A stretch of DNA of 56,618 nt from a virus, in UHGV virus genome UHGV-2050067. One strand, written 5' to 3'. Positions 5,892-56,618 of this stretch are shown piece after piece. A program made the position numbers and the translations under genes. The first letter of the stretch is position 1. Each line of letters starts with the position of its first letter. The notes beneath the pieces were generated by a model, which saw only the letters and a program-made list of their open reading frames with translations, had not been told where the DNA came from and ran no database searches.

Positions 5892-5921
5892 CAGATCCCG
5901 CCGTTGCGTGATATTTGTTTT

Positions 5922-5955
5922 TCGCTTCGCAGCGACACCGGATTTTTAAAGAGCT
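5922..5955 (-). promoter_or_regulatory. candidate nut-like site (boxA-like GCTCTTTAAAAA plus short hairpin) on the minus-strand transcript
   Basis: Minus strand reads GCTCTTTAAAAA, then 8 nt, then tcgc-tgcgaa-gcga stem-loop, upstream of the 5891 start. Confidence 0.3.
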
Positions 5956-5994
5956 TAAGTGGTTGGCCTTTTGTGCTTTCCTTTATCTTTTTTC

Positions 5995-6058
5995 TTGCAT
6001 CATTGCAACTATGGCCTTACCTTGTTTGCAAGTTTACAGAATGGCGTTGACAGGTCAA
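5995..6058. promoter_or_regulatory. immunity switch region: three palindromic operator candidates spaced about 26 bp apart
   Basis: TTGCAtcatTGCAA (5995-6008), cTTGtttgCAAg (6021-6032), TTGACaggTCAA (6047-6058) between divergent early and repressor genes. Confidence 0.45.
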
Positions 6059-6117
6059 GGCTTTAAAAATACGTTTTGTGACTTGTATCAAACTTTTTTA
6101 GGTTATAGGGTAGCGAC

Positions 6118-6765
6118 ATGAAAACAAAATGGTATGACTTAGCAAAACAACTCATGCGGGCGCAGGGCATGAGCCAGGATTCATTGGCTGATCTCATGGG
6201 GATAACCAAAGGTGGCCTTTCGCACTGGCTGAACGGTCGCCGTGAGCCGAATCTTGAAGATATTGCGCGTATCATGCGGGCGCTTGGGCGTCGGCAATTC
6301 ACTGTTACTCATGACGGAATGGTCATTGATGATTCTGTTTCTAACACGTTGCCGGGAGCGCCACCGCGTGATTTAGGCAGTTACCCGGTTGTTGACTGGA
6401 AGGATGTAGCAAACAATATGGAAGGCACACACCGATCAACATTGCCACACGTTGCTACTAGCGTTATTTGTTCGGATGATAGTTATTGGCTGGTTGCTAA
6501 AGGTGAATCAATGAACGCACCGCAAGGGTTGAGCATCCCGGCGGGGACTATGATACTTGTTGACCCGCACGCGCCAGCTATTGACGGAAAACTTGTTATA
6601 GCACAACTGGAGGAAGGGCAGATACCTACGTTTAAACAGTTGATTATTGATGGAGGCCGAAAACTTTTGCGTTCACTAAATCCGTTGTATCCGCCGATCC
6701 CTATGAATCCAGAGTCAAAAATCATTGGCGTGGTTGTTGACGCGAAGATCGTAAACCTGCCATAA
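6118..6765 (+). CDS. CI-like phage repressor (HTH_XRE plus S24 LexA-like peptidase domain)
   Basis: 215-aa ORF; N-terminal HTH (QDSLADLMGITKGGLSHWLNGRREP); C-terminal S24 motifs (VAKGESMNAPQ Ser, IDGKLVIAQL Lys). Confidence 0.85.
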   Translation: MKTKWYDLAKQLMRAQGMSQDSLADLMGITKGGLSHWLNGRREPNLEDIARIMRALGRRQFTVTHDGMVIDDSVSNTLPGAPPRDLGSYPVVDWKDVANNMEGTHRSTLPHVATSVICSDDSYWLVAKGESMNAPQGLSIPAGTMILVDPHAPAIDGKLVIAQLEEGQIPTFKQLIIDGGRKLLRSLNPLYPPIPMNPESKIIGVVVDAKIVNLP

Positions 6766-6796: not shown

Positions 6797-6888
6797 CCTG
6801 GAAAACACCAAAACGTAAACAGAAAACGTTATTTATTATTTAAATATCAATGGGATATAAAATATTTTAAAAAAGTATACAAAATGGA

Positions 6889-6917
6889 TTGACTCGGTGT
6901 TTTACGGGGCGTATATT
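6889..6917 (+). promoter_or_regulatory. sigma70-like promoter (pL-like) for the rightward operon
   Basis: TTGACT, 17-bp spacer, TATATT; about 45 nt upstream of boxA. Confidence 0.5.
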
Positions 6918-6960
6918 GCGAGTCAAAGGAGGTAGCAAGGCAGGGAAAGGGAAGGTTATT

Positions 6961-6998
6961 TGCTCTTTAACAATCTGGTCAGCCGCTGGAAGTGCGGC
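6961..6998 (+). promoter_or_regulatory. nut-like site: boxA (TGCTCTTTAACAA) plus boxB-like hairpin
   Basis: boxA at 6961-6973 is identical to the rrn-type boxA consensus; gccgc-tggaagt-gcggc stem-loop at 6982-6998; between promoter and N-like ORF. Confidence 0.5.
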
Positions 6999-7055
6999 AA
7001 TTAACGAAGATGATTTTTTTATTAAGTATCATCAAGGATATACGGAGATCAGATT

Positions 7056-7346
7056 ATGAGCGTTACAATCATGTATGGCAAATGTGACAGTAAACTGAAT
7101 GCCAGGGAACGCAGAAAAATAAAAAGAGAAAACGAAAGAAAATCATCACCTGCAATTAATAAAACAGACAATGTGGATAAAGCTATTCGATTTGCAAACG
7201 AGGAAAGGTGCAAACCAAATAGCATTAAAGAACGTCGCAAAGGATCAGTAAAATGGTATATGGAAAATGAAAGCGGCAGCTACTACCACGCAACGCAACC
7301 ACGCCATTTAGGGGAAAAACCCCTGGATAAAGTCCGCTATCATTAA
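7056..7346 (+). CDS. N-like transcription antiterminator candidate (arginine-rich motif)
   Basis: 96-aa basic ORF with N-terminal NARERRKIKRENERK arginine-rich motif; first gene after the promoter and nut-like site. Confidence 0.4.
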   Translation: MSVTIMYGKCDSKLNARERRKIKRENERKSSPAINKTDNVDKAIRFANEERCKPNSIKERRKGSVKWYMENESGSYYHATQPRHLGEKPLDKVRYH

Positions 7347-7376
7347 TACAAAATGTAAACATTCGGAGGTGACATT

Positions 7377-7496
7377 ATGGTTATTCAGGCGCTCCAATTC
7401 AAACTAGCAGTAGCGGAAATGCTTCACGATGCCGAAATGTGGAGCGCCGCGAATAAAGCCTTATGCATAGTGTTAACAGCGAAGGAGGCTAGTTAA
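7377..7496 (+). CDS. small ORF (39 aa), hypothetical
   Basis: ATG at 7377 preceded by SD cggaggtgacatt; stop overlaps the HNH start (taATGg). Confidence 0.3.
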   Translation: MVIQALQFKLAVAEMLHDAEMWSAANKALCIVLTAKEAS

Positions 7497-8026
7497 TGGC
7501 TTATTCAAAACATGGAATGACGCACACAAAACTTTATGAAGTTTTCAAAGGAATGAAAACGAGATGCAGGAAAAGCGATAAGAATCCAAAAAATAAACAC
7601 TATAAAGATAAAGGTATAGCCATATGTGATGAGTGGTTGAATGATTCATCAAGGTTTATCGAGTGGGCTTTAAATAACGGTTATCAGGAAGGGTTAGAAA
7701 TAGACAGGACTGATAACGATAAAGGTTACTCCCCGGATAATTGCCGATGGGTTACACATGCTGAAAACATGCGTAATACATGTAAAACCAGAATATTAAC
7801 AGTGAATGGGGAAACTAACACAATACATTATTTTTCTGAAAAATACAGTATAGGTGAGGACACCATACGTTCAAGATTACGTCGCGGCTGGAGTCATGAA
7901 GCCGCTGTACTTCTTCCTTTAAGAAAGGGGAAACGATGTGAAGAAAGATTTATACAAAAAATTGTGGCTAATTCAGCAGCAATTAAAAGCGCCAAAATCT
8001 CAACGCAACTCATACGGTGGTTATAA
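7496..8026 (+). CDS. HNH endonuclease
   Basis: 176-aa ORF; DRTDNDKGYSPDNCRWVTHAENMRNT is an HNH-type motif; strong SD gaaggagg; 3' end overlaps the erf start by about 89 nt. Confidence 0.65.
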   Translation: MAYSKHGMTHTKLYEVFKGMKTRCRKSDKNPKNKHYKDKGIAICDEWLNDSSRFIEWALNNGYQEGLEIDRTDNDKGYSPDNCRWVTHAENMRNTCKTRILTVNGETNTIHYFSEKYSIGEDTIRSRLRRGWSHEAAVLLPLRKGKRCEERFIQKIVANSAAIKSAKISTQLIRWL

Positions 8027-43110: not shown

Positions 43111-46100
43111 ATGAGTAGCGGCGGCGGCAAAGCCAAAACACCAGTATTATTAAACGATAACCTGTATCATAAACAGTTTTATCGTGTTTTAGATATTCTC
43201 AGCGAAGGGCCGATATACGGTCCGGTAAACCAGAAAGCGCCACTGAATGACGTGATGCTTAATGACACGCCTGTTACTGACGCAAACGGGAATACATCAA
43301 TCCCGGGGATTAGTGTAGCCTGGCGCAACGGCACGGCTGACCAATCGCCGATTAATGGCTTTAATGCCATCGAGTCAACCGTTATTGTCAACACAAAGGT
43401 AACTCACGACACACCAATAATCAGGACTGTTTCAGATCCAAACGTTACCCGCGTTAGGTTAAATCTTGGTGTCGATGCTCTGGTCCAGTCAGATGAAAAG
43501 GGCAACCAGTACAATACTTCCGTCATGTTGATGGTCGATGTTAAACCTTCATCATCTTCTACGTGGTCGCTGATTAAGGATATACAAATTGGCCCCGGAA
43601 AACAAAGCGGTGAGTATCTGGAAGCTCACATCATTAAAGCACCGGACGAAAAACCGTTTGATATTCGCGTGCGTCGCATAACAGCAGACAGCCACAGCGA
43701 TCTATTGCGGAACGATACGCGGTGGAGCAGTTACAGCGAAATAATTGACGATAACCTGTCTTATCCTCATACCGCTGTAGCTGGCGCAGTAATTGACCAC
43801 GATCAATATACTGATACGCCTACGCGTACCTATCACCTTCGCGGCCTGATTGTTGATGTTCCTGATAACTACAACACAGAAACGCGCACATATTCTGGTT
43901 TATGGCTTGGTGGATTCAAAAAAGCGTACACCAATAACCCTGCGTGGATTTTCCGGTATCTGGTTAAAAATGAGCGCTTCGGGCTTGCTAAACATGCTGG
44001 TTACATTGATGTTGATGATGGCGCTTTGTACGTGCTTTCTCAATACTGCGACCAGTTGGTTGATGATGGCTATGGTGGCCTTGAACCTCGCATGACTCTC
44101 AACGCTTACATTACGGAGCAAATGAGCGCCCGCGACCTACTGGATAACATCGCAGGTATGTTCCGTGGTATCGCGTTATGGGATGGACAGCGCCTTACTG
44201 TAATGATTGATGCACCGCAAGATCCAATTGCCACCATCACAAACGCAAACGTCGTTGATGGCGCGTTTACTCGCTCAAGTCTTCCGCTTGCAGAGTGTTA
44301 CAACGCCGTGATCGTATCATGGACTGACCCGGAAAACGGCTGGGAGCAATCAAAAGAATACGTGGCAGATGATGAACTAATCGCCCGCGATGGTTATAAC
44401 GAAACCACGTTGGAGGCGTTCGGGTGCACGTCACGCGGGCAAGCGTACCGCGCTGGTAAATGGCTGATAGAAACAGCAAAACGCGAGCCGTCTAAATTCA
44501 CGTTTAAAATGGCCCGTGACGCAATTCACTTCACCCCCGGTGATATTATCGAGATACTCGACAATAACCGCGCTGGCGCTCGTTTAGGCGGTCGCATCGT
44601 GGCAAACAACGGCAGGGTTATCACTGTCGATAAGGTTGATTCTGAATATATCGCCCCCGGCGACACCATTAGCCTGCTTGATAGTGACGGCAAATTTAAA
44701 AAACACCAGATCACCGGAGTTAGCGGAAACAAAATTACCCTTGCATCTGCCCCGGCATGGATTCGTAACGGTACTGTGTTTGCCGTGTCAACTAACGCAG
44801 CAAAACCCGTATTGTGTCGAATCGTCAGCGTGGCGGAAACTGAAAATAACAGCGTGTACACCATAGAGGCTGCACAGCATGATCCGCACAAACAGGCTGT
44901 AGTAGATAATGGCGCAATCTTTGAGGTCAACAACGATACGCTTAATCACTTCCGCGTGCCGAACATTGAAAACCTGAAGGTGTTAAACATTGGATCTGAA
45001 ACAGTTCAATGCCGCGCAACATGGGAAACATTGACGACAACTCATCGCCTGACCTTTGAAATCCGCGTATACAATTCAGCGGGGGCAGTAGTTAAATACT
45101 ACGAAACTACTAATTACAGTTATGATTTTTATGGCATTGATGCGGGAACCTACTCATTAGGCATCCGTGGCAGAAATGACACGGGCATGAAGGGTGCAGA
45201 AAGTATTGTGGATCTGGTTATTGGTGCACCAGCGGCCCCGGTAGGAGTTAACTGGGTTCCCGGTGTATTTCAGGCTACAGTTTACCCGATCAGCAGAACA
45301 ACACTTACCACTGACACCAGTTATGAGTTTTATTACTCAGGCGAAACACAAATCACCGATCCGACATCAGTAACCACTAAGGCACAATATACCGGGCGTG
45401 GTCATCAGTGGACGTTTGGCGGCATGAACACGGGCCACACCTATTACGTTTATGTGCGCACACGCAATGCTTTTGGCGTGTCTGACTTTGTGGAGGCATC
45501 AGGTAAGCCGACAGAGAATTTTGATGAAATCAGCGATTACGTCACCAAAGACGTGATGAACTCAGAACAGTTCAAGGAAATGATTGGTGACATCAAAGAT
45601 CTTGGTAACCGCACGGATGTTATTGAAAATGCTACAAATGAACTAAAAGCAGCTACTGACAACCTCAAAACTGCAACTGATAATCTGACCAATATAACTG
45701 ACGATTTAAGAACTGAAACCGACAACCTGACTAACATAACCGAAGATTTAAGAAATGATACTGACAACCTAATTACAGAAACAGGATCAATAAAAGCTGA
45801 TACCGATACGCTAAAAAAAGAAACAGAAGATCTTTATAAAAGAGTTAAGGAAAACGCCGATGATATTGGTCAGCATGAGTCAAGAATTGATTCATTAGAA
45901 GTGTCCAGCGAAAAAGTTGGCAGCGAACTGGCGCAAGCGAAAGCAAGCATGCAAAACGCGTCACTTGCTCTTATTAATAACTCACTTGCACAGACTAACA
46001 CCCGCGTAACTCTTACCGCTCAGTACAAGAAAGGCAGGACAGAGACGAAAGCGGAAATTGACCGTATTGACAACGTTATCGCTGAAGAGAAGAAGGCGAC

Positions 46101-48552
46101 AGCGGAATCACTGAAAACCATCACGGCAGAAATGAATACGATGGATTCAAACCTCAAAGGTCAGATTTCTAGCGTGCAACGCGCAGTAGCTGACGAGGCC
46201 AGCGCACGCGCTGAAGCTATTAACGGTGTAAACGCCTCAATAAGCAATCTTGACAAGAAAACTGACGCCAGCGTTAACCGCCTTGATCAAGCTATCGCCG
46301 ACGAAACAAGCGCACGCACCCAGGCAGTCAGCGACGTTAACGCAAATATCTCAGCACTTGACAAGAAAACTGACGCCAGCGTTAAACGTTTGGATCAAGC
46401 TATTGCAGACGAAACAAGCGCCCGCAGCGAGGCTATTAGTGGAGTAAACGCCTCGGTATCAGCTCTCGACAAGAAAACTGACTCAAGTATAAGCCGTCTT
46501 GATAAGGCAATAGCAGACGAGACGAGCGCGAGAACTGAAGCCATTAACGGTGTGAAGGCGTCAATTTCCACACTTGACGGTAAGGTCACAAGTAACGTTA
46601 ATCGTCTTGATAAGGCGATTGCTGACGAAACGAAGGCGCGCACTGACGCTATCAGCAGTGTAAATGCAAGTATTAGCACACTTGAAAGCAACACCAAATC
46701 AGAAGTAAGCAGACTTGATCAGGCGATTGCTGACGAGGCCAGCGCACGCGCACAAGCAATCAGTGGCGTGAACGCCTCAATAGACAGTCTAGAAAGAAAA
46801 ACCGACGCGAGCGTTTCCCGTCTTGATAAAGCAATAGCAGATGAAACGCAGGCAAGAAGCGACGCAATAACAGAGGTTAAAGCAGATTTAACAACGCTTG
46901 AGAACAGCACAAACGCCAGCGTTAAGCGTCTTGATCAGGCAATTGCCGATGAATCAAGCGCCCGCGCACAGGCAATATCAGGCCTCAGCGCAAATCTTGG
47001 CACTGTTGAAAATAATGTTGGCAAAAACAGCGACGAAATAAATCAGGCAAAAGCAAGCCTGCAAAACGCATCTATTGCACTTATCAATAACTCAATCGCT
47101 CAAACCAACACGCGAGTTACTCTTACGGCCCAATACAAGAAAGGCCTCAGAGAAACAAACGCGCAAATTGACCGTATTGACAATGTTATTGCTGAAGAAA
47201 AAAAAGCTACGGCAGAAGCCATTAGCGGGGTAAACGCATCTATCACTAATCTTGATGATAAGACTGAAGCAAGCGTAAACCGTCTTGATCAGGCAATTGC
47301 AGACGAAACAAGCGCCAGAGGACAAGCTATCAGCGAAGTTAGCGCAAGTGTCAGCACGCTTGATAATAAAGTGACAAGCAACGTCACCAGGATGGACAAA
47401 GCCATCGCCGACGAAACAAAAGCACGCACAGACGCAATAAGCGGCCTCAGTGCATCGCTTACCAGTACGATTAATTCAAAAGTATCTGAAGTGTCGACAG
47501 CGCTCTCTACGCATGAGGAATCAAGCGCGGAAAAATTTAGCCAGATCTCAGCGTCTTTCGAATCAGTAAACTCAAGTATTACAGAATGGTCGCAGGCAAT
47601 GGCAACGGCTGACGAGGCATTATCAAGCAAAATTGATCAGTTGACAGTAACAGTTAACGGGAACAAAACGGCGATAGAGACGACATCGAAAGCGTTAACC
47701 GACTTCAAAGGTAATGTTGATGCGTCGTACTCTATCAAGCTGGCGACCGACAACAACGGAATGAAATACGCAACAGGTATGTCGCTTGGCCTCACTGGTG
47801 ACGGCACTAACTTTCAGTCACAGTGTATTTTCCTTGTTGACCGTTTCGTGTTAATGACCGCAGCAAACGGCACATATACAACGCCTTTCTATGTCACCAA
47901 TGGCGCAATGTATGTAAGAGAAGCGTTTATTAAGGACGGAACTATCAACTCCGCCAAAATAGCCGATCGAATACAGTCAGTTAATTACAGCTGGGGAAAC
48001 GGTACAGGATGGGCGATAGATAAAGCCGGTGACGCAGTATTTAACCAGGTAACCGTAAGGGGTACGGTATACGCTTATGCTGGTGTGTTTAACGGTACTG
48101 TTTACGCAACTGGCGGTAAATTTACTGGAGCAGTTGAAGCTACAAGTTTTGTTGGTGACGTAGCAAGTATGTCAGTGATAAACGAGGATGTATTTCCGTC
48201 AATGAGGGGAAATGGCAGCAGGCGCGTTTCGAAAACTTATCTTGATTCAAGTTCATCAAGTTTATCAAAAACAGTTTACGTTATGATTCCATATGATTTG
48301 TCATACTATACATATGGGGAATCTTCTCGCATCAATGTAACTATAAATATAAGCGGACACGCAAAAACAATTGATATAGAAAGGCCAGCATCAACCCCAG
48401 CAATGTCAACTGTCGCGGTGCACTGTGTATCTGGCCTCACATACCCAACAATTACAGTAGAGGTGACGGAAAACTTTACCAATACATCTAATGCAGCAAA
48501 AAGAAAACCAGGTTTAATACTTATAACAAGAAGTTCAGGAACATGGATATAA
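43111..48552 (+). CDS. host specificity / central tail fiber protein (J-like), 1813 aa with internal repeat domain
   Basis: Largest ORF; conserved J-like N-terminal region followed by repetitive fibrous region; follows I-like gene. Confidence 0.85.
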   Translation: MSSGGGKAKTPVLLNDNLYHKQFYRVLDILSEGPIYGPVNQKAPLNDVMLNDTPVTDANGNTSIPGISVAWRNGTADQSPINGFNAIESTVIVNTKVTHDTPIIRTVSDPNVTRVRLNLGVDALVQSDEKGNQYNTSVMLMVDVKPSSSSTWSLIKDIQIGPGKQSGEYLEAHIIKAPDEKPFDIRVRRITADSHSDLLRNDTRWSSYSEIIDDNLSYPHTAVAGAVIDHDQYTDTPTRTYHLRGLIVDVPDNYNTETRTYSGLWLGGFKKAYTNNPAWIFRYLVKNERFGLAKHAGYIDVDDGALYVLSQYCDQLVDDGYGGLEPRMTLNAYITEQMSARDLLDNIAGMFRGIALWDGQRLTVMIDAPQDPIATITNANVVDGAFTRSSLPLAECYNAVIVSWTDPENGWEQSKEYVADDELIARDGYNETTLEAFGCTSRGQAYRAGKWLIETAKREPSKFTFKMARDAIHFTPGDIIEILDNNRAGARLGGRIVANNGRVITVDKVDSEYIAPGDTISLLDSDGKFKKHQITGVSGNKITLASAPAWIRNGTVFAVSTNAAKPVLCRIVSVAETENNSVYTIEAAQHDPHKQAVVDNGAIFEVNNDTLNHFRVPNIENLKVLNIGSETVQCRATWETLTTTHRLTFEIRVYNSAGAVVKYYETTNYSYDFYGIDAGTYSLGIRGRNDTGMKGAESIVDLVIGAPAAPVGVNWVPGVFQATVYPISRTTLTTDTSYEFYYSGETQITDPTSVTTKAQYTGRGHQWTFGGMNTGHTYYVYVRTRNAFGVSDFVEASGKPTENFDEISDYVTKDVMNSEQFKEMIGDIKDLGNRTDVIENATNELKAATDNLKTATDNLTNITDDLRTETDNLTNITEDLRNDTDNLITETGSIKADTDTLKKETEDLYKRVKENADDIGQHESRIDSLEVSSEKVGSELAQAKASMQNASLALINNSLAQTNTRVTLTAQYKKGRTETKAEIDRIDNVIAEEKKATAESLKTITAEMNTMDSNLKGQISSVQRAVADEASARAEAINGVNASISNLDKKTDASVNRLDQAIADETSARTQAVSDVNANISALDKKTDASVKRLDQAIADETSARSEAISGVNASVSALDKKTDSSISRLDKAIADETSARTEAINGVKASISTLDGKVTSNVNRLDKAIADETKARTDAISSVNASISTLESNTKSEVSRLDQAIADEASARAQAISGVNASIDSLERKTDASVSRLDKAIADETQARSDAITEVKADLTTLENSTNASVKRLDQAIADESSARAQAISGLSANLGTVENNVGKNSDEINQAKASLQNASIALINNSIAQTNTRVTLTAQYKKGLRETNAQIDRIDNVIAEEKKATAEAISGVNASITNLDDKTEASVNRLDQAIADETSARGQAISEVSASVSTLDNKVTSNVTRMDKAIADETKARTDAISGLSASLTSTINSKVSEVSTALSTHEESSAEKFSQISASFESVNSSITEWSQAMATADEALSSKIDQLTVTVNGNKTAIETTSKALTDFKGNVDASYSIKLATDNNGMKYATGMSLGLTGDGTNFQSQCIFLVDRFVLMTAANGTYTTPFYVTNGAMYVREAFIKDGTINSAKIADRIQSVNYSWGNGTGWAIDKAGDAVFNQVTVRGTVYAYAGVFNGTVYATGGKFTGAVEATSFVGDVASMSVINEDVFPSMRGNGSRRVSKTYLDSSSSSLSKTVYVMIPYDLSYYTYGESSRINVTINISGHAKTIDIERPASTPAMSTVAVHCVSGLTYPTITVEVTENFTNTSNAAKRKPGLILITRSSGTWI
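45640..45790 (+). repeat. short in-frame coding repeats (TDNL-type) within J-like gene
   Basis: NATNELKAATDNLKTATDNLTNITDDLRTETDNLTNITEDLRNDTDNLITE. Confidence 0.7.
46174..47470 (+). repeat. about ten tandem 108-bp (36-aa) coding repeats in J-like gene, plus a higher-order duplication
   Basis: Units of the form V-x-RLDQAIADETSAR-x-x-AISGVNASIS-x-LDKKTDAS repeated; AKASxQNASxALINNSxAQTNTRVTLTAQYKKG block at about 45940 duplicated at about 47050. Confidence 0.85.
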
Positions 48553-48557
48553 AAAAT

Positions 48558-48585
48558 AACCCCGCTTCGCGCGGGGTTTTCTTTT
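48558..48585. terminator. bidirectional rho-independent terminator between J-like gene and lipoprotein moron
   Basis: aaccccgc-ttcgc-gcggggtt hairpin flanked by A-run upstream and T-run downstream. Confidence 0.65.
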
Positions 48586-48832
48586 AGTAGTTAGCTACAC
48601 AGTTAGAAGGGCTACCGATGCGGCGCATGTTGTGATCGAGTTCGTGACACCATTGACCAGTATAAGGCAGTTTTTCAGTGTCATAGACAAGATGCCCGTT
48701 AACATCATAAACAACATCCTGTGGAATTACTCCACTATTCGGCAGGTTATGCAATGCAGCTTCCTTATCAACAGCACATCCAGTAAGAGCTACAGCCGCA
48801 GCGAACAAAACCACTTTGAACATGTTTTTCAT
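48584..48832 (-). CDS. lipoprotein moron (possible Cor-like superinfection-exclusion lipoprotein)
   Basis: 82 aa; signal peptide with lipobox (VALTGC); opposite strand between J and tail fiber genes. Confidence 0.55.
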   Translation of the reverse strand: MKNMFKVVLFAAAVALTGCAVDKEAALHNLPNSGVIPQDVVYDVNGHLVYDTEKLPYTGQWCHELDHNMRRIGSPSNCVANY

Positions 48833-48926
48833 TTTTAAAGCCTCATTCTCGTTTGTTCATCCGGTTCATCCGGTGGCTTAAATATCCGACAAAAGCACAT
48901 TTCGTATATTGACACAAATCAACAAA

Positions 48927-49000
48927 TACATTTTGTGTAAGCAGAAAATGCAACACAGATCACAAAATGGTAGAATTATTCCGTTAATTAACAAAATGGA
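48927..49000. promoter_or_regulatory. TACAAAATGG-family motif cluster upstream of tail fiber gene / lipoprotein moron
   Basis: tacattttgtg (48927), atcacaaaatgg (48958), aacaaaatggagtcattgcg (48990) immediately before the fiber ATG. Confidence 0.35.
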
Positions 49001-49009
49001 GTCATTGCG

Positions 49010-51214
49010 ATGATTTACACAACTGGAACAATTGCCATCAACGGCAATACTGTTACAGGCACGGGAACAAACTTTTCCGCGCCGCTTTCTCTTATTCGTG
49101 TAGGTTGCACGCTCATTGCTGTTGGCAATCCGGTACAGATCTTTACCATCACAGAAATTAAAAGCGGCACTGAACTGTCAGTGACGCCAGCGGCTAACCC
49201 CGCCATCCCTGCCGGGACAAAATTCAGCATCCTGCTATCTGACTCGATCTCAGTTGATGGGCTTGCTCAGGATGTGGCTGAAACCCTGCGTTACTACCAG
49301 GGCAAGGAAACAGAGATCGCCGCCGCTGTCGAGTGGTGGGAGGATTTTGGCGGCGAAGGTCAGTTGGATCAGCTTCTTACCAACATTCGCGCAGAGACAG
49401 CCAAATCAACCGCCAACGCTCAAAAAACAGGATCCGACAAAAACGCAGCAGAAGCGTCAAAAACAGCGGCTGCAAAATCCGCCACGGCAGCGAAAACATC
49501 AGAAACCAACGCTAAGGCAAGTGAGACGGCAGCGAAAACAAGCGAAACCAACGCCAAAACATCAGAGAACAGGGCGCAAAAATATCTGAATCAAATGGGA
49601 AGGCTTACCAGCCCAATGGTCCAATGTGCTTGGCCTGTTAATACTAGCGGTAATGGCGCTTACGTTAAGATTGCTAAACTTAGCGATCCAAAGTTTTCAG
49701 AGTGCCACTTAACGCTAATGGTTACAAATGGCGGTGGCTACGGTTTAAGTTACGGGAATATTGACTTTATAGAGATCTCCGCTCGAGATCTTAACGACAC
49801 AGGCGAAGTAACCAGTGAAAATATATCTAAATTTTTAAGTATTCGCCGACTCGGTTCACCAAACCTTCCCAATAATAGTCAAATGCGTTACGGCCTGGTT
49901 AAAGGTGACGGCTATATCGAGGTCTGGTGCTACCAGCGATCTTATATTCAAGGCACAAAAGTAGCGGTGCTGGCGCAGACTGGCAACACGGAATTATACA
50001 TTCCTGAAGGATTTGTTAAACAAGACAATGCACCTTCAGGATTTATTGAAAGCCCAGCAGCAAGGATTTACGACCAGGTAAACAAACCTACTAAAGCAGA
50101 TTTAGGCCTTTCTAATGCTATGCTTATAGGCGCTTTTGGTCTTGGCGGTAGCGGTCTTACTTTGGATGGTAAAATGACCGATAAGGAACTACTACAAGAG
50201 CTAAGGGCGAAAGGTGGGTGTTTCTGGAGGTCAGGAAAACCAACAGGTAGCGAATCAACAATTTTCAGCCACGGTTCTGGTATATTCTCGCGGTGCGGCG
50301 ATACGTGGTCAGCTATTAATATCGATTACGAAAGCGGTAGAGTAAAGATTTACTCTAGTAACGATAATAGACTCAACAATGGTACTTTTAACATAAATGA
50401 GCTATACGGAACCAAATACAAGCCGTCGAAATCGGATGTTGGACTTGGTAACGTAACTAACGATGCGCAGGTGAAAAAATCCGGCGACATTATGTCAGGT
50501 GATCTGTCGATCACTAAAGCAACACCTTCACTATACCTGCGTTCAAAAAGTGGAACCGCCCATGTATGGTTCCAAAATGAGGATCAGTCGGAACGCGGCG
50601 TTATTTTTGCGCCTACAAATACTGATACGCTTGGAGAAGTTCACATCAGGGCTAAAAACGCAAAAGGTGAAACAAACGGTGATCTTATTGTTCGCCACGA
50701 TGGGAGGGTTGAAGTCCGTGATCTCTCAGTAGAGTATAAGATTAAAAGCGCCACCGCAGAAGTTAGCGGTAATATCACATGCCAGACACTTCACCAATCA
50801 TCTGACCGCGACCTTAAAGATAACATTCAGGTTATAGGTGAAGCCACTGAATTAATCCGCAAAATGAACGGGTACACCTACACGCTCAAGGAAAACGGCC
50901 TTCCTTATGCTGGCGTTATTGCACAGGAAGTAATGGAGGCGCTACCGGAAGCCGTAGGATCGTTTACTCGTTACGGTGAAGAATTGCAGGGTCCGACCGT
51001 TGACGGCAACGAGCTACGAGAAGAAACACGTTACCTTAATGTTGACTATGCGGCGGTGACTGGTTTACTTGTCCAGGTGGCACGCGAAACGGATAACCGC
51101 GTCACCGAACTGGAAGAGGAGAACGCAAGCCTGAAAGCTAACATTGCCGCAATGGATGAGCGGATAGCAAAACTTGAAGCGCTTATCAGTCAGTTGACCG
51201 GAAGCGAAGAATAA
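49010..51214 (+). CDS. tail fiber protein with C-terminal intramolecular chaperone (S74-type) domain
   Basis: 734 aa; Ala/Thr-rich repeats (KTSETNAKASETAAKTSETNAKTSE); C-terminal DLKDNIQVIGEATELIRKMNGYTYTLKENGLPYAGVIAQEV and final coiled coil typical of autoproteolytic chaperone domains. Confidence 0.75.
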   Translation: MIYTTGTIAINGNTVTGTGTNFSAPLSLIRVGCTLIAVGNPVQIFTITEIKSGTELSVTPAANPAIPAGTKFSILLSDSISVDGLAQDVAETLRYYQGKETEIAAAVEWWEDFGGEGQLDQLLTNIRAETAKSTANAQKTGSDKNAAEASKTAAAKSATAAKTSETNAKASETAAKTSETNAKTSENRAQKYLNQMGRLTSPMVQCAWPVNTSGNGAYVKIAKLSDPKFSECHLTLMVTNGGGYGLSYGNIDFIEISARDLNDTGEVTSENISKFLSIRRLGSPNLPNNSQMRYGLVKGDGYIEVWCYQRSYIQGTKVAVLAQTGNTELYIPEGFVKQDNAPSGFIESPAARIYDQVNKPTKADLGLSNAMLIGAFGLGGSGLTLDGKMTDKELLQELRAKGGCFWRSGKPTGSESTIFSHGSGIFSRCGDTWSAINIDYESGRVKIYSSNDNRLNNGTFNINELYGTKYKPSKSDVGLGNVTNDAQVKKSGDIMSGDLSITKATPSLYLRSKSGTAHVWFQNEDQSERGVIFAPTNTDTLGEVHIRAKNAKGETNGDLIVRHDGRVEVRDLSVEYKIKSATAEVSGNITCQTLHQSSDRDLKDNIQVIGEATELIRKMNGYTYTLKENGLPYAGVIAQEVMEALPEAVGSFTRYGEELQGPTVDGNELREETRYLNVDYAAVTGLLVQVARETDNRVTELEEENASLKANIAAMDERIAKLEALISQLTGSEE

Positions 51215-51243
51215 GAGGTGATGTGCGAAGAACATCGCCGCGC

Positions 51244-51273
51244 GAAACGAGGCTAACGCCTCGTTTCTTTTTG
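51244..51273 (+). terminator. rho-independent terminator after the tail fiber gene
   Basis: gaaacgaggc-taac-gcctcgtttc hairpin followed by ttttt. Confidence 0.7.
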
Positions 51274-51535
51274 TGTACCAAATAGTGACCAAATACCCAA
51301 AACCAAAAACAAAAGCACTGCAACATACTGTTTTATAAATTATTATTCACAAAGCTAACCATTCCAGACAGTAACGATTCGTGGTGTTCAATCCCGTTCA
51401 GACTCGTTCACGGTTGATAAAAAATATCATTTAAATTCACTAAGTTACATCTCAATCATCCTGTCGTGTGTTTAAATCCGTTCAATGGTGTTAATATCCG
51501 TTCAGATAAAACTGTGTACCAAATCGTGACCAAAA
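51272..51535. other. attP-like / prophage junction region with direct repeats and candidate integrase arm sites
   Basis: 22-bp direct repeats tgtgtaccaaat(a/c)gtgaccaaa at 51272-51293 and 51514-51535; TCCGTTCA-type motifs at about 51393, 51405, 51478, 51498; AT-rich; directly upstream of int. Confidence 0.45.
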
Positions 51536-51550
51536 AAAAGAGGTATCAGA

Positions 51551-52765
51551 ATGCTGACGGATACGAAATTACGCGCAATAGCAAACAAGCCATATGACGG
51601 CCCGAACGAGATAGCGGATCGCGACGGCTTGTCTGCCAGGATAAGCCCGAAGGGGAAAATTATTTTCCAGTTCAGGTACAGGTTCAACGGTAAGCCTGTA
51701 AGGATGAAGATTGGCGATTACGGCAGTATGACATTGAAAGATGCACGCTACGCGGTGGCAGAATACAAAGAGCTATTAGCGAAGGGGAAAAACCCAACTG
51801 TTTCAGTAAAGCAAGCGATAAATATTGAGCGTGGCAAATTAACAATAAGCGCCATTGTGAGTGACTATTTATCCCTGCCGAACGTTATTAAGCTGGTTGC
51901 ATATAATGACGTCAGGAGCGCGCTTAAGCGCCATGTTGTCGATAAATTCGGTGAGTATATTGCCGATGATGTCAGCACTAAACAATGGATGGACATATTC
52001 GGCGAGATCACTGCGGCGGGCCACGCGGTTACGGCTGGGCTGATACTCAAGCGAATGAAGATTGTTGTGAACAGCGCTATCCGGCGCGGGCTAATGACCA
52101 GTACAGCGATAAACAATATCAGGGTTGTTGACGTAGGCGAAAATTATGCGGTTGGCGAGCGTTATTTATCGTGCGATGAAATAGGCCATTTCTGGCGAAC
52201 GGTGGATGATTCGCAGATCTACCGTCAGAACAAGATAGCATTAAAGCTATTATTGCTAACCGGGTGCAGGGTGGGGGAGTTGCAGAAAATGAGAAGGGAA
52301 CACCTCGACCTGGACAACGGAGTATGGACCGTCCCGGCGGCGGTGGCGAAGACAAGAAGTGAAATCAGGCGTGGATTATCAGATTTGTCGATAAAAATGC
52401 TCAGGGAGGTATTATCCTCCCATGAGTATGATTATGTGTTCCCGCCAGTGATTAACGGAGGGAACAGACCAGTAAACGCATCAGTGATAAAAGTAGCTGC
52501 AATCTTCGTGCGTAAAAGGATGGGAGGCAAATCATGGTCCTGTCACGACCTCCGCAGGACGTGCCGTACACACCTTTCAGCTATAGGTGTTCCGGTACAT
52601 GTCGCGGAAAAGGTATTAGGCCATTCACTCAGGGGAATACTGGCAGTGTACGACAAATATGATTATCTTGATGAACAAAAGGAGGCGTTAAATAAATTTG
52701 CGGATTACGTCTTATCCCTGGCTGGCGTTAATCCGATCTTATCAAAGAACCGCATCACCTCCTGA
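51551..52765 (+). CDS. int: tyrosine integrase (P4-type)
   Basis: 404 aa; arm-binding-like N-terminus; catalytic region with GCRVGELQKMRREHLD (Arg), HDLRRTCRTH (His-x-x-Arg), VLGHS, VYDKYDY (Tyr). Confidence 0.9.
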   Translation: MLTDTKLRAIANKPYDGPNEIADRDGLSARISPKGKIIFQFRYRFNGKPVRMKIGDYGSMTLKDARYAVAEYKELLAKGKNPTVSVKQAINIERGKLTISAIVSDYLSLPNVIKLVAYNDVRSALKRHVVDKFGEYIADDVSTKQWMDIFGEITAAGHAVTAGLILKRMKIVVNSAIRRGLMTSTAINNIRVVDVGENYAVGERYLSCDEIGHFWRTVDDSQIYRQNKIALKLLLLTGCRVGELQKMRREHLDLDNGVWTVPAAVAKTRSEIRRGLSDLSIKMLREVLSSHEYDYVFPPVINGGNRPVNASVIKVAAIFVRKRMGGKSWSCHDLRRTCRTHLSAIGVPVHVAEKVLGHSLRGILAVYDKYDYLDEQKEALNKFADYVLSLAGVNPILSKNRITS

Positions 52766-52935
52766 TAGCGGTACATGACGCCCCGCCCGGTCCCCAACAC
52801 ATCAACAGGGTCCGGGAATGGAGTTCCGTTTTCCTCCCACTTTTTACGCCATGAATAGAACGTTCCCCTGCTAATTCCCCCAAGCATACGGCAGATGGCA
52901 GGGCGACTAAGAAGAATTGTTGCCGTCTTATCCAT
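52705..52935 (-). CDS. AlpA-family excisionase / transcriptional regulator
   Basis: 76 aa; RPAICRMLGGISRGTFYSWRKKWEENGTPFPDPV matches the AlpA-type HTH pattern; convergent with and overlapping the int 3' end by about 61 bp. Confidence 0.65.
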   Translation of the reverse strand: MDKTATILLSRPAICRMLGGISRGTFYSWRKKWEENGTPFPDPVDVLGTGRGVMYRYQEVMRFFDKIGLTPARDKT

Positions 52936-53594
52936 TATCTTTTCCCCGTGTATTCAACGTGTCCGATACATCCATCAATAATTGCTTGCGCCATATTGCG
53001 ATAATCGCACGTAAAATCGTTGTCACGTTTAAAGTCAATCTCTTTTGCCGCGTCTTCACCCATGACCTTAGTTGCAAGTGCGAACGCTATTTCAGCAAGC
53101 GCCTTTTCTATCGGACCAACATGAATCCTGAAAGCGCATGTCGTCCATGATATCGGCCTCTCTAAGCCTAAATCTTCCTTGCTTTCACATATAGCCCATT
53201 TATCACCAACATATTTAAATTTAACGACATCGAGAACCGTTCCGCTCGTAAGACCTACACAATCAAGCCACACACCAACAGGAGGCTTTTCGCCTGCCAA
53301 CCATTCAGTTTTTTCCGGTTGCGTTTCGCAATCATGCCGCTCATCTTCGATTAATTCATCAATGATCTCACTTTCTTTATTCATGCCGTCATCATCCTTA
53401 TTAGATAAATTAGCGTATTTATCAAATTTCCAGCTTGCAGCCATAACCGAATAAGTGCCGCCATCCGCGCGAACACCCAATAAATAGTATGATCCAAAAT
53501 TATATTCTGTGCGGCATGTTGTTACCTCAAACGATGGGTAACACTCAGGGTTAGTGCGATGGCTAATCACGCCAATTACTTTAAGTTTATTCAT
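52935..53594 (-). CDS. hypothetical protein (219 aa)
   Basis: ORF track; no motif recognised. Confidence 0.45.
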   Translation of the reverse strand: MNKLKVIGVISHRTNPECYPSFEVTTCRTEYNFGSYYLLGVRADGGTYSVMAASWKFDKYANLSNKDDDGMNKESEIIDELIEDERHDCETQPEKTEWLAGEKPPVGVWLDCVGLTSGTVLDVVKFKYVGDKWAICESKEDLGLERPISWTTCAFRIHVGPIEKALAEIAFALATKVMGEDAAKEIDFKRDNDFTCDYRNMAQAIIDGCIGHVEYTGKR

Positions 53595-53608
53595 TTGCTT
53601 ATCCTCAA

Positions 53609-53770
53609 TTACGCCACAGTTACATTGTCAACTTTGATAAAATATTCAGGGTGATTTTCTATTTCGTGCTTAAAGTGCGCGTGACACAATCGCCAATCAC
53701 GCGCCTGGTTGTGAAAGTAATAAACGTATTCGCCATCAATCTTATACAAAATGCCTGTAGGTTTAGCCAT
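53609..53770 (-). CDS. small ORF (about 53 aa), hypothetical
   Basis: MAKPTGILYKIDGEYVYYFHNQARDWRLCHAHFKHEIENHPEYFIKVDNVTVA; alternative upstream start at 53785; absent from the track. Confidence 0.3.
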   Translation of the reverse strand: MAKPTGILYKIDGEYVYYFHNQARDWRLCHAHFKHEIENHPEYFIKVDNVTVA

Positions 53771-53784
53771 GTAATAACTAACCA

Positions 53785-54216
53785 TTATTGCCCCCAGCGT
53801 TTTATAAATTCCTCGTTCAACTTAGTGTCACCAGACCATTGAACATTATGTTCAGCGCCGAACGAGTAGATCAGTTCAATTAATTCGCTAAATTCTGTTT
53901 TACTCATCCGGCTGGTTGACGTTCCCAGCACAACAAAGCCGGATTTATCCAGATTAGGGACAACGCCATATTTCTTAAGCCCGGCAGTGAATACCGCCTT
54001 CCAGTCTTCCGGTGACAGCTTTTTACCGTACCAATTAACCTGATCGCTAACGTCTGTTAATAGCGCCCATAAAAGGCTGTTTTGACTCAGTGATCGTGTT
54101 TTCTCCTGGATGGTAATTATCAGCGGGCTTTTGCTATCAGGCTGGATCTCCCTTATCTGCCTGATAGCGTTTTCTTTTACGGCGTCGTTTACTATCTCAA
54201 ATCTAATTTGCTTCAT
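53785..54216 (-). CDS. ninB: NinB-family recombination protein
   Basis: 143 aa; MKQIRFEIVNDAVKENAIRQIREIQPDSKSPLIITIQEKTRSLSQNSLLWALLTDVS...GFVVLGTSTSRMSKTEFSELIELI parallels lambda NinB as recalled. Confidence 0.8.
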   Translation of the reverse strand: MKQIRFEIVNDAVKENAIRQIREIQPDSKSPLIITIQEKTRSLSQNSLLWALLTDVSDQVNWYGKKLSPEDWKAVFTAGLKKYGVVPNLDKSGFVVLGTSTSRMSKTEFSELIELIYSFGAEHNVQWSGDTKLNEEFIKRWGQ

Positions 54217-54410
54217 AATACACCGTTGCTATTTTTCCATTGCGCCCGCGCATACATGATCGCCCGCAAAGAAATTAGGCGCGAGCTTGTCATGAAAGCG
54301 CTTTTTAAGTACCTCATATCAACAACAACAGGCTTATCAGGATCGTCGCCGCGCATGTATTCCGCAATTGTGCTTAAGTCTTCCACGGTCAAATCTAATT
54401 CCCTATTCAT
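54213..54410 (-). CDS. hypothetical protein (65 aa)
   Basis: ORF track; overlapping stop/start with neighbours. Confidence 0.35.
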   Translation of the reverse strand: MNRELDLTVEDLSTIAEYMRGDDPDKPVVVDMRYLKSAFMTSSRLISLRAIMYARAQWKNSNGVL

Positions 54411-54419
54411 GGTCGCCCC

Positions 54420-54626
54420 TTACACAATCCGCATTGTGTTTCGTAATTCACCGCGCAACGCCTGCAAAGCGTAACGAATCGGCACAAAAGCCCGGTTAAA
54501 TTTTACGTGCTTATACTTGCGCATTAGTGGCGGCGTATAAACCATTGTGCCGCAAGGATCGCATGCGAATTTAAAGTGAGATTCGTCAACAAACGTTTCA
54601 ACTGAATAAAAAATTACCCGTCTCAT
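54420..54626 (-). CDS. hypothetical protein (68 aa)
   Basis: ORF track; Cys-containing (CDPCG). Confidence 0.35.
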   Translation of the reverse strand: MRRVIFYSVETFVDESHFKFACDPCGTMVYTPPLMRKYKHVKFNRAFVPIRYALQALRGELRNTMRIV

Positions 54627-55216
54627 AATTCCAACCCCGTTTCGCCGTTAAGTTTTTCAATCTCAAATACTGGTTTATCCGGTAGCAGGCCGTTATTTTT
54701 CCGGTATTCGTTCAGACGACTGTCAAAGTCAAACGCCAAATCATTAGCGTGACCGAATCGCCCAGGTTTAAACAGTGAGTAAAAATTAACCCCGTGCCTA
54801 TTTGGATCAACGCAAAGCGTTTCATCAATCACCATTAAACGCATAGTACGAGAAAGATAATTCCACGGTATTCCCGTTTCAGCGCTAATGTCGCGCATAC
54901 GCTTTTTAACGCTGTAGTCACTAAATAACGCCGCCACACGATCGCGCCGTTGCGCATACAAATATTTAATTCGATACCCCAACAAGCGGCGGCGCGGTCC
55001 AAAATATGTATATACACGCTCAACAATACCAGTGTCGATTAAGTGTTTAATTGTCTCAGGTAAGCATCCGGCTTCGTCATATTCCGCTGATAATCCTGTT
55101 TTCTGGCGTAACTGGTGCATTGTGTCGATGCCATCAAGTTCAAGGATATTGATAATTTTTGCTTCAAGTTCAATGCTCATTGTTTTTCGCCTCGTTTTAA
55201 GCACAAAAACAGCCAC
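54623..55216 (-). CDS. hypothetical protein (185-197 aa) downstream of helicase
   Basis: ORF track; likely start at MSIELEAKIINILELDG (about 55180). Confidence 0.45.
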   Translation of the reverse strand: MAVFVLKTRRKTMSIELEAKIINILELDGIDTMHQLRQKTGLSAEYDEAGCLPETIKHLIDTGIVERVYTYFGPRRRLLGYRIKYLYAQRRDRVAALFSDYSVKKRMRDISAETGIPWNYLSRTMRLMVIDETLCVDPNRHGVNFYSLFKPGRFGHANDLAFDFDSRLNEYRKNNGLLPDKPVFEIEKLNGETGLEL

Positions 55217-55259
55217 CAGAAAGCGGTCAACTTTCCGGTAAGCCGTTTGCTCAAGTTAA

Positions 55260-56618
55260 TTAAAAGGATGCGTTATTCTGGTTGTTTCGTTGGTTAAATC
55301 GACTTGTGCGATGATTCATCGACTGAATACATGCAGACGCTGCGCGGGCCTGGTCGCAAGGGAGGATATTGCCGTTGTCGTCAAATCGCTGGTAAACAGT
55401 CCCCGTTTTCCCGTGACGGTTTTTCGAAACAATGATCTCCATATATTCGCGGGCAACAGACTGTTCATCATAGTACCCGTCGCGATAGACCATGATGATC
55501 CGGTCTGCGTCCTGTTCAAGATTCCCGGAATCGCGCAGATCAGAATTATTCGGGCGCTTGTTCGGTCGTTCCTCAACGCGGCGGGATAATTGCGCCAGCG
55601 CCAACACTGGTACGCGCAATTCTTTCGCCATCATCTTCAACGACCATGACAATTGCCCTACAGCGAGATCGTGACGTTCGGCCTTAGCCAGCTTCATTAG
55701 ACCGATGTAGTCAATCATTACCATACCCAGGTTCGGGTGTTCCTGCTTCATGCGTTCCGTTGTTGCGCGTATTTCCTCAACCGTCAACTGCGACGCGTCA
55801 ACGATCCACACCTCAAGATTAGCAAGTGCGCTCATCCCCTGGCCTACATGCGCCCAACCCTCATCATCAAGTTTTACCGGATTGCGCAGGCAGTCAGTTG
55901 ATAAATTACCAGCGCCAGCGATAGCACGCTCAGTCATCTGATCGAGTGACATTTCAAGCGTGAAGAGCAAAACGCCAACCCGCTGTTCTTTACCACCAGG
56001 GTAAGGGCGTTCAGCGGCTGCGCGGGCAATTGTCAGCGCCAACGCAGATTTACCAGACCCAGGGCGTCCGGCGAGAAGTACCAAATCAGTAGCGTTAATG
56101 CCGCCCAACATTTCGTCGAGTGGTTCTATACCTGTTTTGATGTTGTCAGAATTGACACCGCATTCCATGCGCGTGCTTAAAACATCCGTATATTCCTGTA
56201 CCGCATCGCGCAACAGAACCGGAATGATCTTATCTTTCGTTACCTTCAATTTTGAATACCGGGAATCAAAATCTTTCATCGTCTCTTTGACGACCTCAAG
56301 CGTCCCCGTTTCCAGTTTGTAGCGCATATCGTCGATGAGTTCCAACATCTGCCGCCGCTGGTGCTCTTCACGTAGTAGCTGTGCGTATCCTTTCAGGTTT
56401 GCGGCAGAAGGACACGATCGCGCCGTTTGCATCAGAGGAACAAAGTTTTCATTGCCAATCTCATCGCCAACCAATAACGCGTCGATAAGATTCCTGTTTC
56501 TGGCTTGCGCCCGGATAACCTCAAACGCACGTTTGTAAAGCGGGATCGTGAACACTTCAGGATCCAGAGTGGCGAGAACATCTTGCGCGTTAGGAGTGAG
56601 GCCGCCTAACAGCAGCCC
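55260..56618 (-). CDS. replicative DNA helicase (DnaB-like); 5' end lies beyond the window end
   Basis: Walker A LLAGRPGSGKSALALT and DnaB-like C-terminal domain; reading frame stays open upstream of the track start at 56555 to the window edge, matching the longer N-terminus of the left-edge copy. Confidence 0.85.
   Translation of the reverse strand, partial: GLLLGGLTPNAQDVLATLDPEVFTIPLYKRAFEVIRAQARNRNLIDALLVGDEIGNENFVPLMQTARSCPSAANLKGYAQLLREEHQRRQMLELIDDMRYKLETGTLEVVKETMKDFDSRYSKLKVTKDKIIPVLLRDAVQEYTDVLSTRMECGVNSDNIKTGIEPLDEMLGGINATDLVLLAGRPGSGKSALALTIARAAAERPYPGGKEQRVGVLLFTLEMSLDQMTERAIAGAGNLSTDCLRNPVKLDDEGWAHVGQGMSALANLEVWIVDASQLTVEEIRATTERMKQEHPNLGMVMIDYIGLMKLAKAERHDLAVGQLSWSLKMMAKELRVPVLALAQLSRRVEERPNKRPNNSDLRDSGNLEQDADRIIMVYRDGYYDEQSVAREYMEIIVSKNRHGKTGTVYQRFDDNGNILPCDQARAASACIQSMNHRTSRFNQRNNQNNASF

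Follow-up and report, generated by a model that had tools for sequence, protein, structure and literature searches.

What does a small lipoprotein gene do when it lies between the gene for a phage's tail tip and that for its tail fiber, and which host receptor is at stake? We address this question for the virus genome UHGV-2050067, the whole of which (56,618 nucleotides) is here termed the window. Between its J-like tail-tip (host-specificity) gene and a lateral tail-fiber gene, the window encodes on the minus strand (48584..48832, stop codon included) an 82-residue lipoprotein precursor, which is the orthologue of gp116 (Lpp010) of phage mEp010, the 'type-C Lpp' of the mEpimmI phages. As such, the feature is already known: the type-C Lpp is an exclusion lipoprotein directed at LamB, the maltose porin, and the window's sole addition is a new pairing of this lipoprotein with a J tip of a second kind, termed subtype II below. 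That the window protein itself is a LamB-directed exclusion lipoprotein is highly probable. A type-C Lpp superinfection-exclusion lipoprotein of a temperate phage of the mEpimmI group is the best explanation of the locus overall, and one that we hold to be likely.

An orthologue with a published exclusion phenotype

The window protein is 96% identical to Lpp010, 95% to its counterpart in mEp013 and 94% to those in mEp044, mEp554 and MagusPhagus. Three substitutions separate it from Lpp010 (n = 3), namely M4V in the signal peptide and the pair V44G and N45S in a loop that is variable across the family. The two proteins share family, length, locus, terminator and phage group; they differ in their neighbor, for the J tip beside Lpp010 belongs to subtype I and that of the window to subtype II, and these are only 22-24% identical over the last 125 residues.

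The family of mEp010 gp116 was named the 'type-C Lpp' of mEpimmI phages by Negrete-Mendez et al. 2025 (PMC11893012). Lpp010 was cloned in a low-copy Ptac vector and, once expressed, excluded lambda, which was unexpected, as well as mEp010, mEp044 and mEp554; mEp013 escapes this exclusion (PMC11893012). On the evidence of Keio mutants, mEp010, mEp013, mEp044 and mEp554 all need LamB (PMC11893012). The superinfection exclusion at the level of the receptor that an earlier note on this DNA had raised is therefore right for this family, since the orthologue excludes LamB-dependent phages (PMC11893012). The same note called the function untested and proposed expression in a sensitive host as the check; that check has already been done on the near-identical Lpp010, which excludes LamB-dependent phages including lambda, and the description is therefore out of date (PMC11893012).

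The gene, its product and selection

The reading frame starts with ATG, and its translation is MKNMFKVVLFAAAVALTGC followed by AVDKEAALHNLPNSGVIPQDVVYDVNGHLVYDTEKLPYTGQWCHELDHNMRRIGSPSNCVANY. It bears out the earlier description of an 82-residue lipoprotein with the lipobox LTGC on the strand opposite to J. The signal peptide, as read from the sequence, comprises residues 1-18 (48779..48832, minus strand), with an n-region MKNMFK and an h-region VVLFAAAVA; the lipobox L16-T17-G18-C19 (48776-48787, minus strand) fits the pattern [LVI][ASTVI][GAS]C, and the codon for the lipidated Cys19 occupies 48776-48778. The mature protein of 64 residues (7.2 kDa) carries a variable tether of about 11 residues (residues 20-30), followed by a conserved core of 52 residues (residues 31-82; 48587..48742, minus strand), which two family alignments render as PNSGVIP...DTEKLPxTGQWCHExDHxxRRIGSPSNCVxxY. 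Cys19 is invariant in 23 family members, as is Cys78; Cys62 is kept in at least 90% of them, and all the invariant columns of the family are present in the window protein. The two core cysteines, Cys62 and Cys78 (mature positions 44 and 60), probably form a disulfide that closes a 15-residue C-terminal loop.

The residue following the lipidated cysteine (+2) is Ala in the window protein and in all mEp-type members; across the 23 aligned members it is Ala, Ser or Gly in 20 and Asp in three (P0008, P0012 and P0013), with Thr in P0026. Under the sorting rule of the E. coli Lol system, Ala at +2 sends a lipoprotein to the outer membrane. Because the window protein has Ala at this position, it is predicted to be sorted there by Lol.

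The gene is confirmed as real and not a chance open reading frame (ORF), because four lines of evidence concur: a match to PHROG 12984 'lipoprotein' (E=9e-27, residues 7-82); 25 homologous clusters in a collection of 5.8 billion proteins; a low ratio of nonsynonymous to synonymous substitution rates (dN/dS) in the conserved core, 0.02-0.08 where synonymous sites are unsaturated; and a gene order that is kept across unrelated phage lineages. Purifying selection on the core is strong. Scans of the lipoprotein against Pfam, NCBIfam and PADLOC returned no family, the NCBIfam matches being confined to the signal peptide, and a PDB search with the family sequence profile matched no chain, with nothing below E=0.48.

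Distribution of the family and its association with LamB use

The family is very small. A tblastn search with the mature protein found a homologue in 44 of 50,697 phage records (a complete list). The matches comprise five mEpimmI phages, about thirty Queuovirinae (Seuratvirus, and Nonagvirus 9g), the Dhillonvirus phages EP23, PNS1, Maverick, CS16 and HH3, and one Enterobacter phage. An exhaustive hidden Markov model (HMM) search among 1.84 billion representative proteins recovered three genuine clusters at 50% identity, the most divergent of which, P0026, lies between J and tail-fiber genes on 44-kb Dhillonvirus-like contigs. A fourth HMM match, P0028, is a 4467-residue adhesin with CshA/SdrD repeats, which had been matched via a repeated DG-G motif and was rejected as spurious.

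Over the 52 residues of the core, the window protein is 68-77% identical to the homologues from Seuratvirus, Nonagvirus and Dhillonvirus, with 70-72% for Seuratvirus and Dhillonvirus homologues. The lipoproteins of Bas21-24, CAjan, Seurat, 9g and EP23 agree with that of the window in both cysteines, in their place between J and the tail-fiber gene and in the convergent terminator. The Seuratvirus-type homologues differ in their signal peptide and tether (GNGLNTGK as against AVDKEAALHNL in the window), and their carriers are virulent. In the records of EP23 and PNS1 the homologue is unannotated despite an intact ORF with the lipobox LMTAC; in EP23, a Shigella phage (NC_016566.1), it occupies 5920-6162.

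The phages of the BASEL collection tie the family to a receptor. According to BASEL table S5, Bas21 GottfriedDienst, Bas22 KurtStettler, Bas23 WildeMaa and Bas24 SeppeHuegi are LamB-dependent and Bas25 VogelGryff is LptD-dependent. A homologue is present in Bas21-24, that is, in all four LamB-dependent Seuratviruses of BASEL, and Bas25 is absent from the list of 44 records. In keeping with this, van den Berg et al. 2022 stated of phages that target LamB, Bas23 among them, that they 'likely do have SE lipoproteins' (for superinfection exclusion) downstream of gpJ (PMC9586334), and lipoproteins in this position in LamB-targeting phages were also flagged as likely exclusion proteins by Maffei 2021.

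Receptor versus receptor-binding tip

The C-terminal tip of the window J, its last ~125 residues (48175-48549, plus strand), appears by sequence to belong to the tip family of LamB-dependent phages. The J tips encoded beside these lipoproteins form one loose family with TYTDSS-like and ...VIxxxRGSGS(F/W) motifs and at least three subtypes: subtype I is found in mEp010, mEp013 and Bas22, subtype II in the window, CAjan, EP23 and Bas21/23/24, and a third in a metagenomic locus. Subtypes I and II each include phages in which the use of LamB has been verified. From end to end of the last 125 residues, the window tip shares 40-41% identity with its CAjan and Bas21/23/24 counterparts, as against 22-29% with those of mEp010, mEp013 and Bas22.

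The lipoproteins show a different pattern. The core of Bas22 (subtype I) matches those of CAjan, Bas21 and Bas23 (subtype II) at 100% identity, and that of the window (subtype II) shares 96% identity with its mEp010 (subtype I) counterpart; across all pairs, the cores are 60-100% identical and the J tips 17-70%. In a megablast comparison with mEp010, the matching DNA of the window sets in at about 48549, at the end of J and just upstream of the terminator, and because it starts there the tips appear to be exchanged independently of the lipoprotein. The terminator looks like the recombination joint for such swaps of the J tip (48549-48580). Taken together, these comparisons indicate that the lipoprotein tracks the receptor and not the receptor-binding tip, and the combination of the lipoprotein with a J tip of this family can serve as a sequence marker of LamB use in siphoviruses.

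The window J is itself unusually long. It has coiled-coil-like repeats of the form ...RLDQAIADETSAR..AI..VNASIS.LD.KTDASV..., roughly at codons 850-1450. The length of J ranges from 1504 to 1813 residues among members of the group, presumably via gain and loss of repeats.

Proposed mechanism and its rivals

The remaining question is one of mechanism, which the authors of the T5 Llp structure also raised: by what means could a porin with no plug and no known allostery be disabled by a lipoprotein of this size? Two structurally characterized systems provide the analogy. Llp binds FhuA on its periplasmic face and moves its extracellular loops (PMC9586334), and for LptDE the displaced extracellular loops are EL4 and EL5, with Rtp45 bound at the periplasmic membrane interface. 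What makes Rtp45 a relevant precedent is that neither LptD nor LamB is a TonB-dependent transporter.

Since the lipoprotein core follows no tip subtype, and since lambda, whose tip has 'little to no homology' to the mEp/Seuratvirus-type tips, is excluded as well, the protein would act on the receptor LamB and not on a particular phage tip or other phage protein. We propose that it may bind LamB from the periplasmic side of the outer membrane, as in the pairs Llp-FhuA and Rtp45-LptDE; LamB thus bound would be changed or locked in such a way that J tips could no longer engage it productively. A lysogen, or an infected cell and its debris, would in this manner be shielded from LamB-using phages, and phages that contact LamB differently, such as mEp013, would escape. 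The escape of mEp013 in turn suggests an altered LamB that is still present in the membrane. Moreover, the core is strongly conserved across phages of E. coli, Shigella, Salmonella, Cronobacter and Enterobacter, beside fast-evolving tips, and this conservation fits a conserved periplasmic or lumenal surface of LamB as the putative target. By analogy with the two solved systems, we regard periplasmic-side binding to LamB as an evenly balanced proposition.

A further idea is offered more tentatively, and we would sooner doubt it than assert it. The family might represent a third, structurally unrelated solution to receptor inactivation, which operates on a plain trimeric diffusion porin with neither a plug nor a lateral gate. 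Part of the core might thread into, or clamp, the periplasmic mouth of LamB, shifting the extracellular loops and possibly closing the channel to maltodextrins. If true, this would make the lipoprotein a genetically encoded LamB inhibitor of 7 kDa, and it would account for the block of two unrelated tips (lambda J and mEp/Seuratvirus J) together with the escape of mEp013.

Several points weigh against the reading of the window protein as an exclusion lipoprotein that acts on LamB from the periplasm. First, the assay of Lpp010 was a spot test with plasmid expression in which plaques were scored, and adsorption was not separated from later steps (PMC11893012). Second, exclusion by the window protein would follow from that by its orthologue, which is another allele in another phage. 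Third, the use of LamB by the window phage is suggested by a J-tip identity of only ~40% to verified LamB tips. Fourth, LamB has no plug and no known allostery, and a route of the Llp type is not obviously open to it, as the T5 authors pointed out (PMC9586334). Fifth, a strict sigma-70 scan of 48400-49100 found no promoter from which the gene could be expressed in a lysogen. Finally, structure prediction lends no support: AlphaFold2 gave unreliable models both for the full precursor with a 23-sequence alignment (predicted local distance difference test score, pLDDT, of 55.8) and for the mature part alone with 20 sequences (pLDDT 51.5). This last failure is uninformative because free Llp was likewise mispredicted by AlphaFold2, as the T5 authors note (PMC9586334). 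A Foldseek search of the first model against the PDB, in which the best match was not below E=5.9, was discarded as meaningless.

Of the alternatives, the one that fares best holds that the lipoprotein lowers the amount of functional LamB, through interference with its folding or assembly by the β-barrel assembly machinery (BAM), through its degradation or through damping of the mal regulon, and that the high-affinity tip of mEp013 still finds enough of it. A scarce receptor would be expected to exclude both of the unrelated tip types, those of mEp and lambda; the lack of any known allostery in LamB speaks for such depletion, and a threshold effect could accommodate the escape of mEp013. However, both solved analogues act on the assembled receptor, and the sequence gives no hint of a link to BAM or to regulators. 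Furthermore, a lytic Seuratvirus would be short of time to dilute the LamB that is already present, yet the gene is under strong purifying selection. Accordingly, we consider a depletion of LamB improbable.

The outer loops of LamB are variable, and a core so highly conserved in phages of E. coli, Salmonella, Cronobacter and Enterobacter is a better fit to a conserved periplasmic or lumenal surface than to a second alternative, in which a surface-exposed lipoprotein masks the extracellular loops of LamB and sterically competes with J tips. No surface-export signal is known in the protein, and the LptD case for which masking had been proposed proved to be periplasmic (Rtp45). Even so, such masking would be a direct account of the exclusion of unrelated tips, and surface exposure was raised by van den Berg et al. 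for receptors other than TonB-dependent transporters (PMC9586334). We judge it slightly less probable again than a shortage of LamB.

The predicted outer-membrane location (Ala at +2) argues against a third alternative, a block after adsorption that affects the passage of DNA through the envelope, as with some proteins of the Sie/Imm type. So do the strict co-occurrence of the lipoprotein with LamB-type tips, rather than with a phage lineage, and the escape of mEp013, whose tip differs from that of mEp010 (69% identical). What such a block has in its favor is that the published assay scored plaque formation only and that interference with DNA ejection is one of the options named by the mEpimmI authors themselves (PMC11893012); it is nonetheless very improbable.

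Relation to Cor, Llp, Rtp45 and the lambda morons

The weakest alternative, to which we give almost no credence, is the model implied by the earlier note, namely a member of the Cor/Llp family that inactivates FhuA: size class, lipoprotein nature and adjacency to J are indeed alike, but the associated phages use LamB and not FhuA, as the Keio mutants of the mEp relatives and BASEL table S5 attest, and the sequence matches to Cor cover the signal peptide only. Membership in Cor was entertained on the strength of a full-length hhalign probability of 89% to HK022 Cor, and it was rejected as both the alignment and its confidence lie in the signal peptide; the match to PHROG 1119 (Cor) likewise has E=0.058 and spans residues 4-29 only. 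With the mature protein alone, hhalign probabilities fall to 0.2% (Cor), 0.1% (T5 Llp), 2.1% (Rtp45) and 0.3% (mEp021 gp81), and BLASTP gives no match to Cor, Llp or mEp021 gp81 and a non-significant one to Rtp45 (best E=0.46). The cysteines also differ: Cor and Llp have theirs at mature positions 11-12 and 58-60 (12 and 60 in HK022 Cor; Cys11-Cys58 in Llp), the window protein at 44 and 60. The protein thus stands outside the Cor/Llp family, to which its resemblance is functional and positional only; the label 'Cor-like' holds for position and general kind and fails for sequence similarity.

This functional resemblance is still considerable. T5 Llp and the Cor proteins of T1, phi80, HK022 and N15 are likewise small outer-membrane lipoproteins with a mature length of about 60 residues and one disulfide. 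They are encoded beside the receptor-binding gene and inactivate the phage's own receptor, Llp doing so from the periplasmic face. Their disulfide, however, ties the two ends of the protein together, whereas that of the window protein would close a C-terminal loop, and their target FhuA is a TonB-dependent transporter with a plug, in contrast to the LamB of the window family. Rtp45 of phage Rtp, an LptD exclusion lipoprotein verified by its structure, has the same arrangement as the window lipoprotein, convergent with J, and disables a receptor that is not TonB-dependent from the periplasm by moving extracellular loops. It differs in being encoded with a separate receptor-binding protein, Rtp44, whereas the window J carries the tip itself and the lipoprotein stands alone; the ORF list of the window has no Rtp44-like gene between J and the tail fiber.

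Two lambda proteins invite comparison by position or kind. Lom occupies the equivalent slot after J and is a β-barrel protein; Bor is a small lipoprotein that is expressed from the prophage and confers serum resistance. Neither shows homology to the window lipoprotein, and neither excludes phages.

One observation concerns mEp021 itself (MH706966.1), where the 'type-A Lpp' locus (6797-7950) encodes gp80, 64% identical to Rtp44 over 311/311 residues, and gp81, 49% identical to Rtp45. Rtp44 has been assigned to LptD by homology to the receptor-binding protein of Oekolampad. In the mEpimmI paper, mEp021 and mEp515 are assigned OmpA as their main receptor (PMC11893012). These similarities raise the possibility that LptD may be the terminal receptor of both phages, and it may have escaped the Keio screen because it is essential.

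Organization of the locus and expression signals

The position of the lipoprotein gene between J and the tail-fiber gene, and the terminator that it has in common with a convergent J, are both as the earlier note described them. The ORF list places J (1813 residues) at 43111..48552 and the divergent lateral tail-fiber gene (734 residues) at 49010..51214, both on the plus strand. A bidirectional intrinsic terminator common to J and the lipoprotein gene, called on both strands at 48558..48578, consists of a hairpin with an 8-bp stem and a T-run at each side, and lies between the stop of J (48552) and that of the lipoprotein gene (48584). The order of J, convergent lipoprotein gene and divergent tail-fiber gene is kept in the mEpimmI phages, in Seuratvirus, in Dhillonvirus and in metagenomic contigs; a tail fiber is annotated at the orthologous position in mEp010, CAjan, EP23 and KurtStettler, and in CAjan a similar hairpin separates J from the lipoprotein gene.

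Upstream of the lipoprotein gene, a Shine-Dalgarno sequence GAGG (48841..48844, minus strand), 8 nt before the ATG, is kept in mEp010, mEp013 and the prophage of E. coli MIN12. The divergent intergenic region (48833..49009) holds only weak sigma-70 candidates for the gene: a lenient scan yielded only candidates that agree at 8-9 of 12 positions, among them TTGTTA-16-TACCAT (48994-48967, 8/12) and ATGACT-19-AATAAT (9/12, with a poor spacer). In the Seuratvirus homologues there is a good sigma-70-like promoter, TTGACT-16-TATATT, which is kept in CAjan and KurtStettler, and none such exists in the window. The label 'moron' is therefore provisional: the terminator that it implies is present, but neither scan yielded a convincing promoter of the gene's own. 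At 96% conservation among the window, mEp010, mEp013 and the MIN12 prophage, the intergenic sequences are too alike to be informative.

Two further elements of this region deserve mention. A tandem direct repeat, CCGGATGAA CCGGATGAA, at 48856-48873 (read on the minus strand), lies just upstream of the ribosome-binding site of the lipoprotein gene and is largely kept in mEp010, mEp013 and MIN12; it could be an operator or be without function. On the plus strand, an extended -10-like element, TGgTAGAAT (48966-48976), ends 34 nt upstream of the tail-fiber ATG (49010). It is a possible promoter of the tail-fiber gene's own, downstream of the J terminator, and the strict scan missed it because it has no -35 element.

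For the small ORFs that PHANOTATE called between the lipoprotein and tail-fiber genes, gp117 of mEp010 and gp105 of mEp013, there is no counterpart of at least 40 residues in the window, where 48833-49009 contains only ORFs of 26-38 residues with GTG or TTG starts; both are probably over-calls. An Rfam scan of 48000-49500 gave only sub-threshold matches, which were driven by the terminator.

Identity of the window phage

Positions 1-25000 of the window match mEp010 4943-28388 at 88.6% identity, and the region of J, lipoprotein and tail fiber matches mEp010, mEp013, mEp044, mEp554 and MagusPhagus. Past the tail fiber, the integrase region (51200-56618), a block that holds integrase, AlpA-like and helicase genes, has its counterpart at the opposite end of the same prophage in E. 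coli MIN12, where about 46 kb separate it from the lipoprotein gene. These matches to mEp010 and to the end of the MIN12 prophage show the window to be the entire genome, in circularly permuted form, of a phage of the mEpimmI (mEp021) group and not a lambdoid prophage with host flanks. This group comprises 'Nus-dependent non-lambdoid' temperate coliphages (PMC11893012), and the lambdoid context assumed in the earlier note has to be given up. A second mobile element, suspected from the integrase that follows the tail fiber, was rejected, that region being the other end of the same circularly permuted genome. The attP site should lie between the tail-fiber stop (51214) and int (51551), in the junction region 51215-51550. 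ARAGORN found no tRNA in the window.

In E. coli genomes, the lipoprotein goes under the PGAP name 'hypothetical protein', which can be changed to LamB-directed superinfection-exclusion lipoprotein. Prophages that carry the gene should render their host strains resistant to LamB-dependent phages, which bears on phage therapy and on the prediction of host range; the lipoprotein locus is rare, present in 17 of 5426 complete E. coli genomes.

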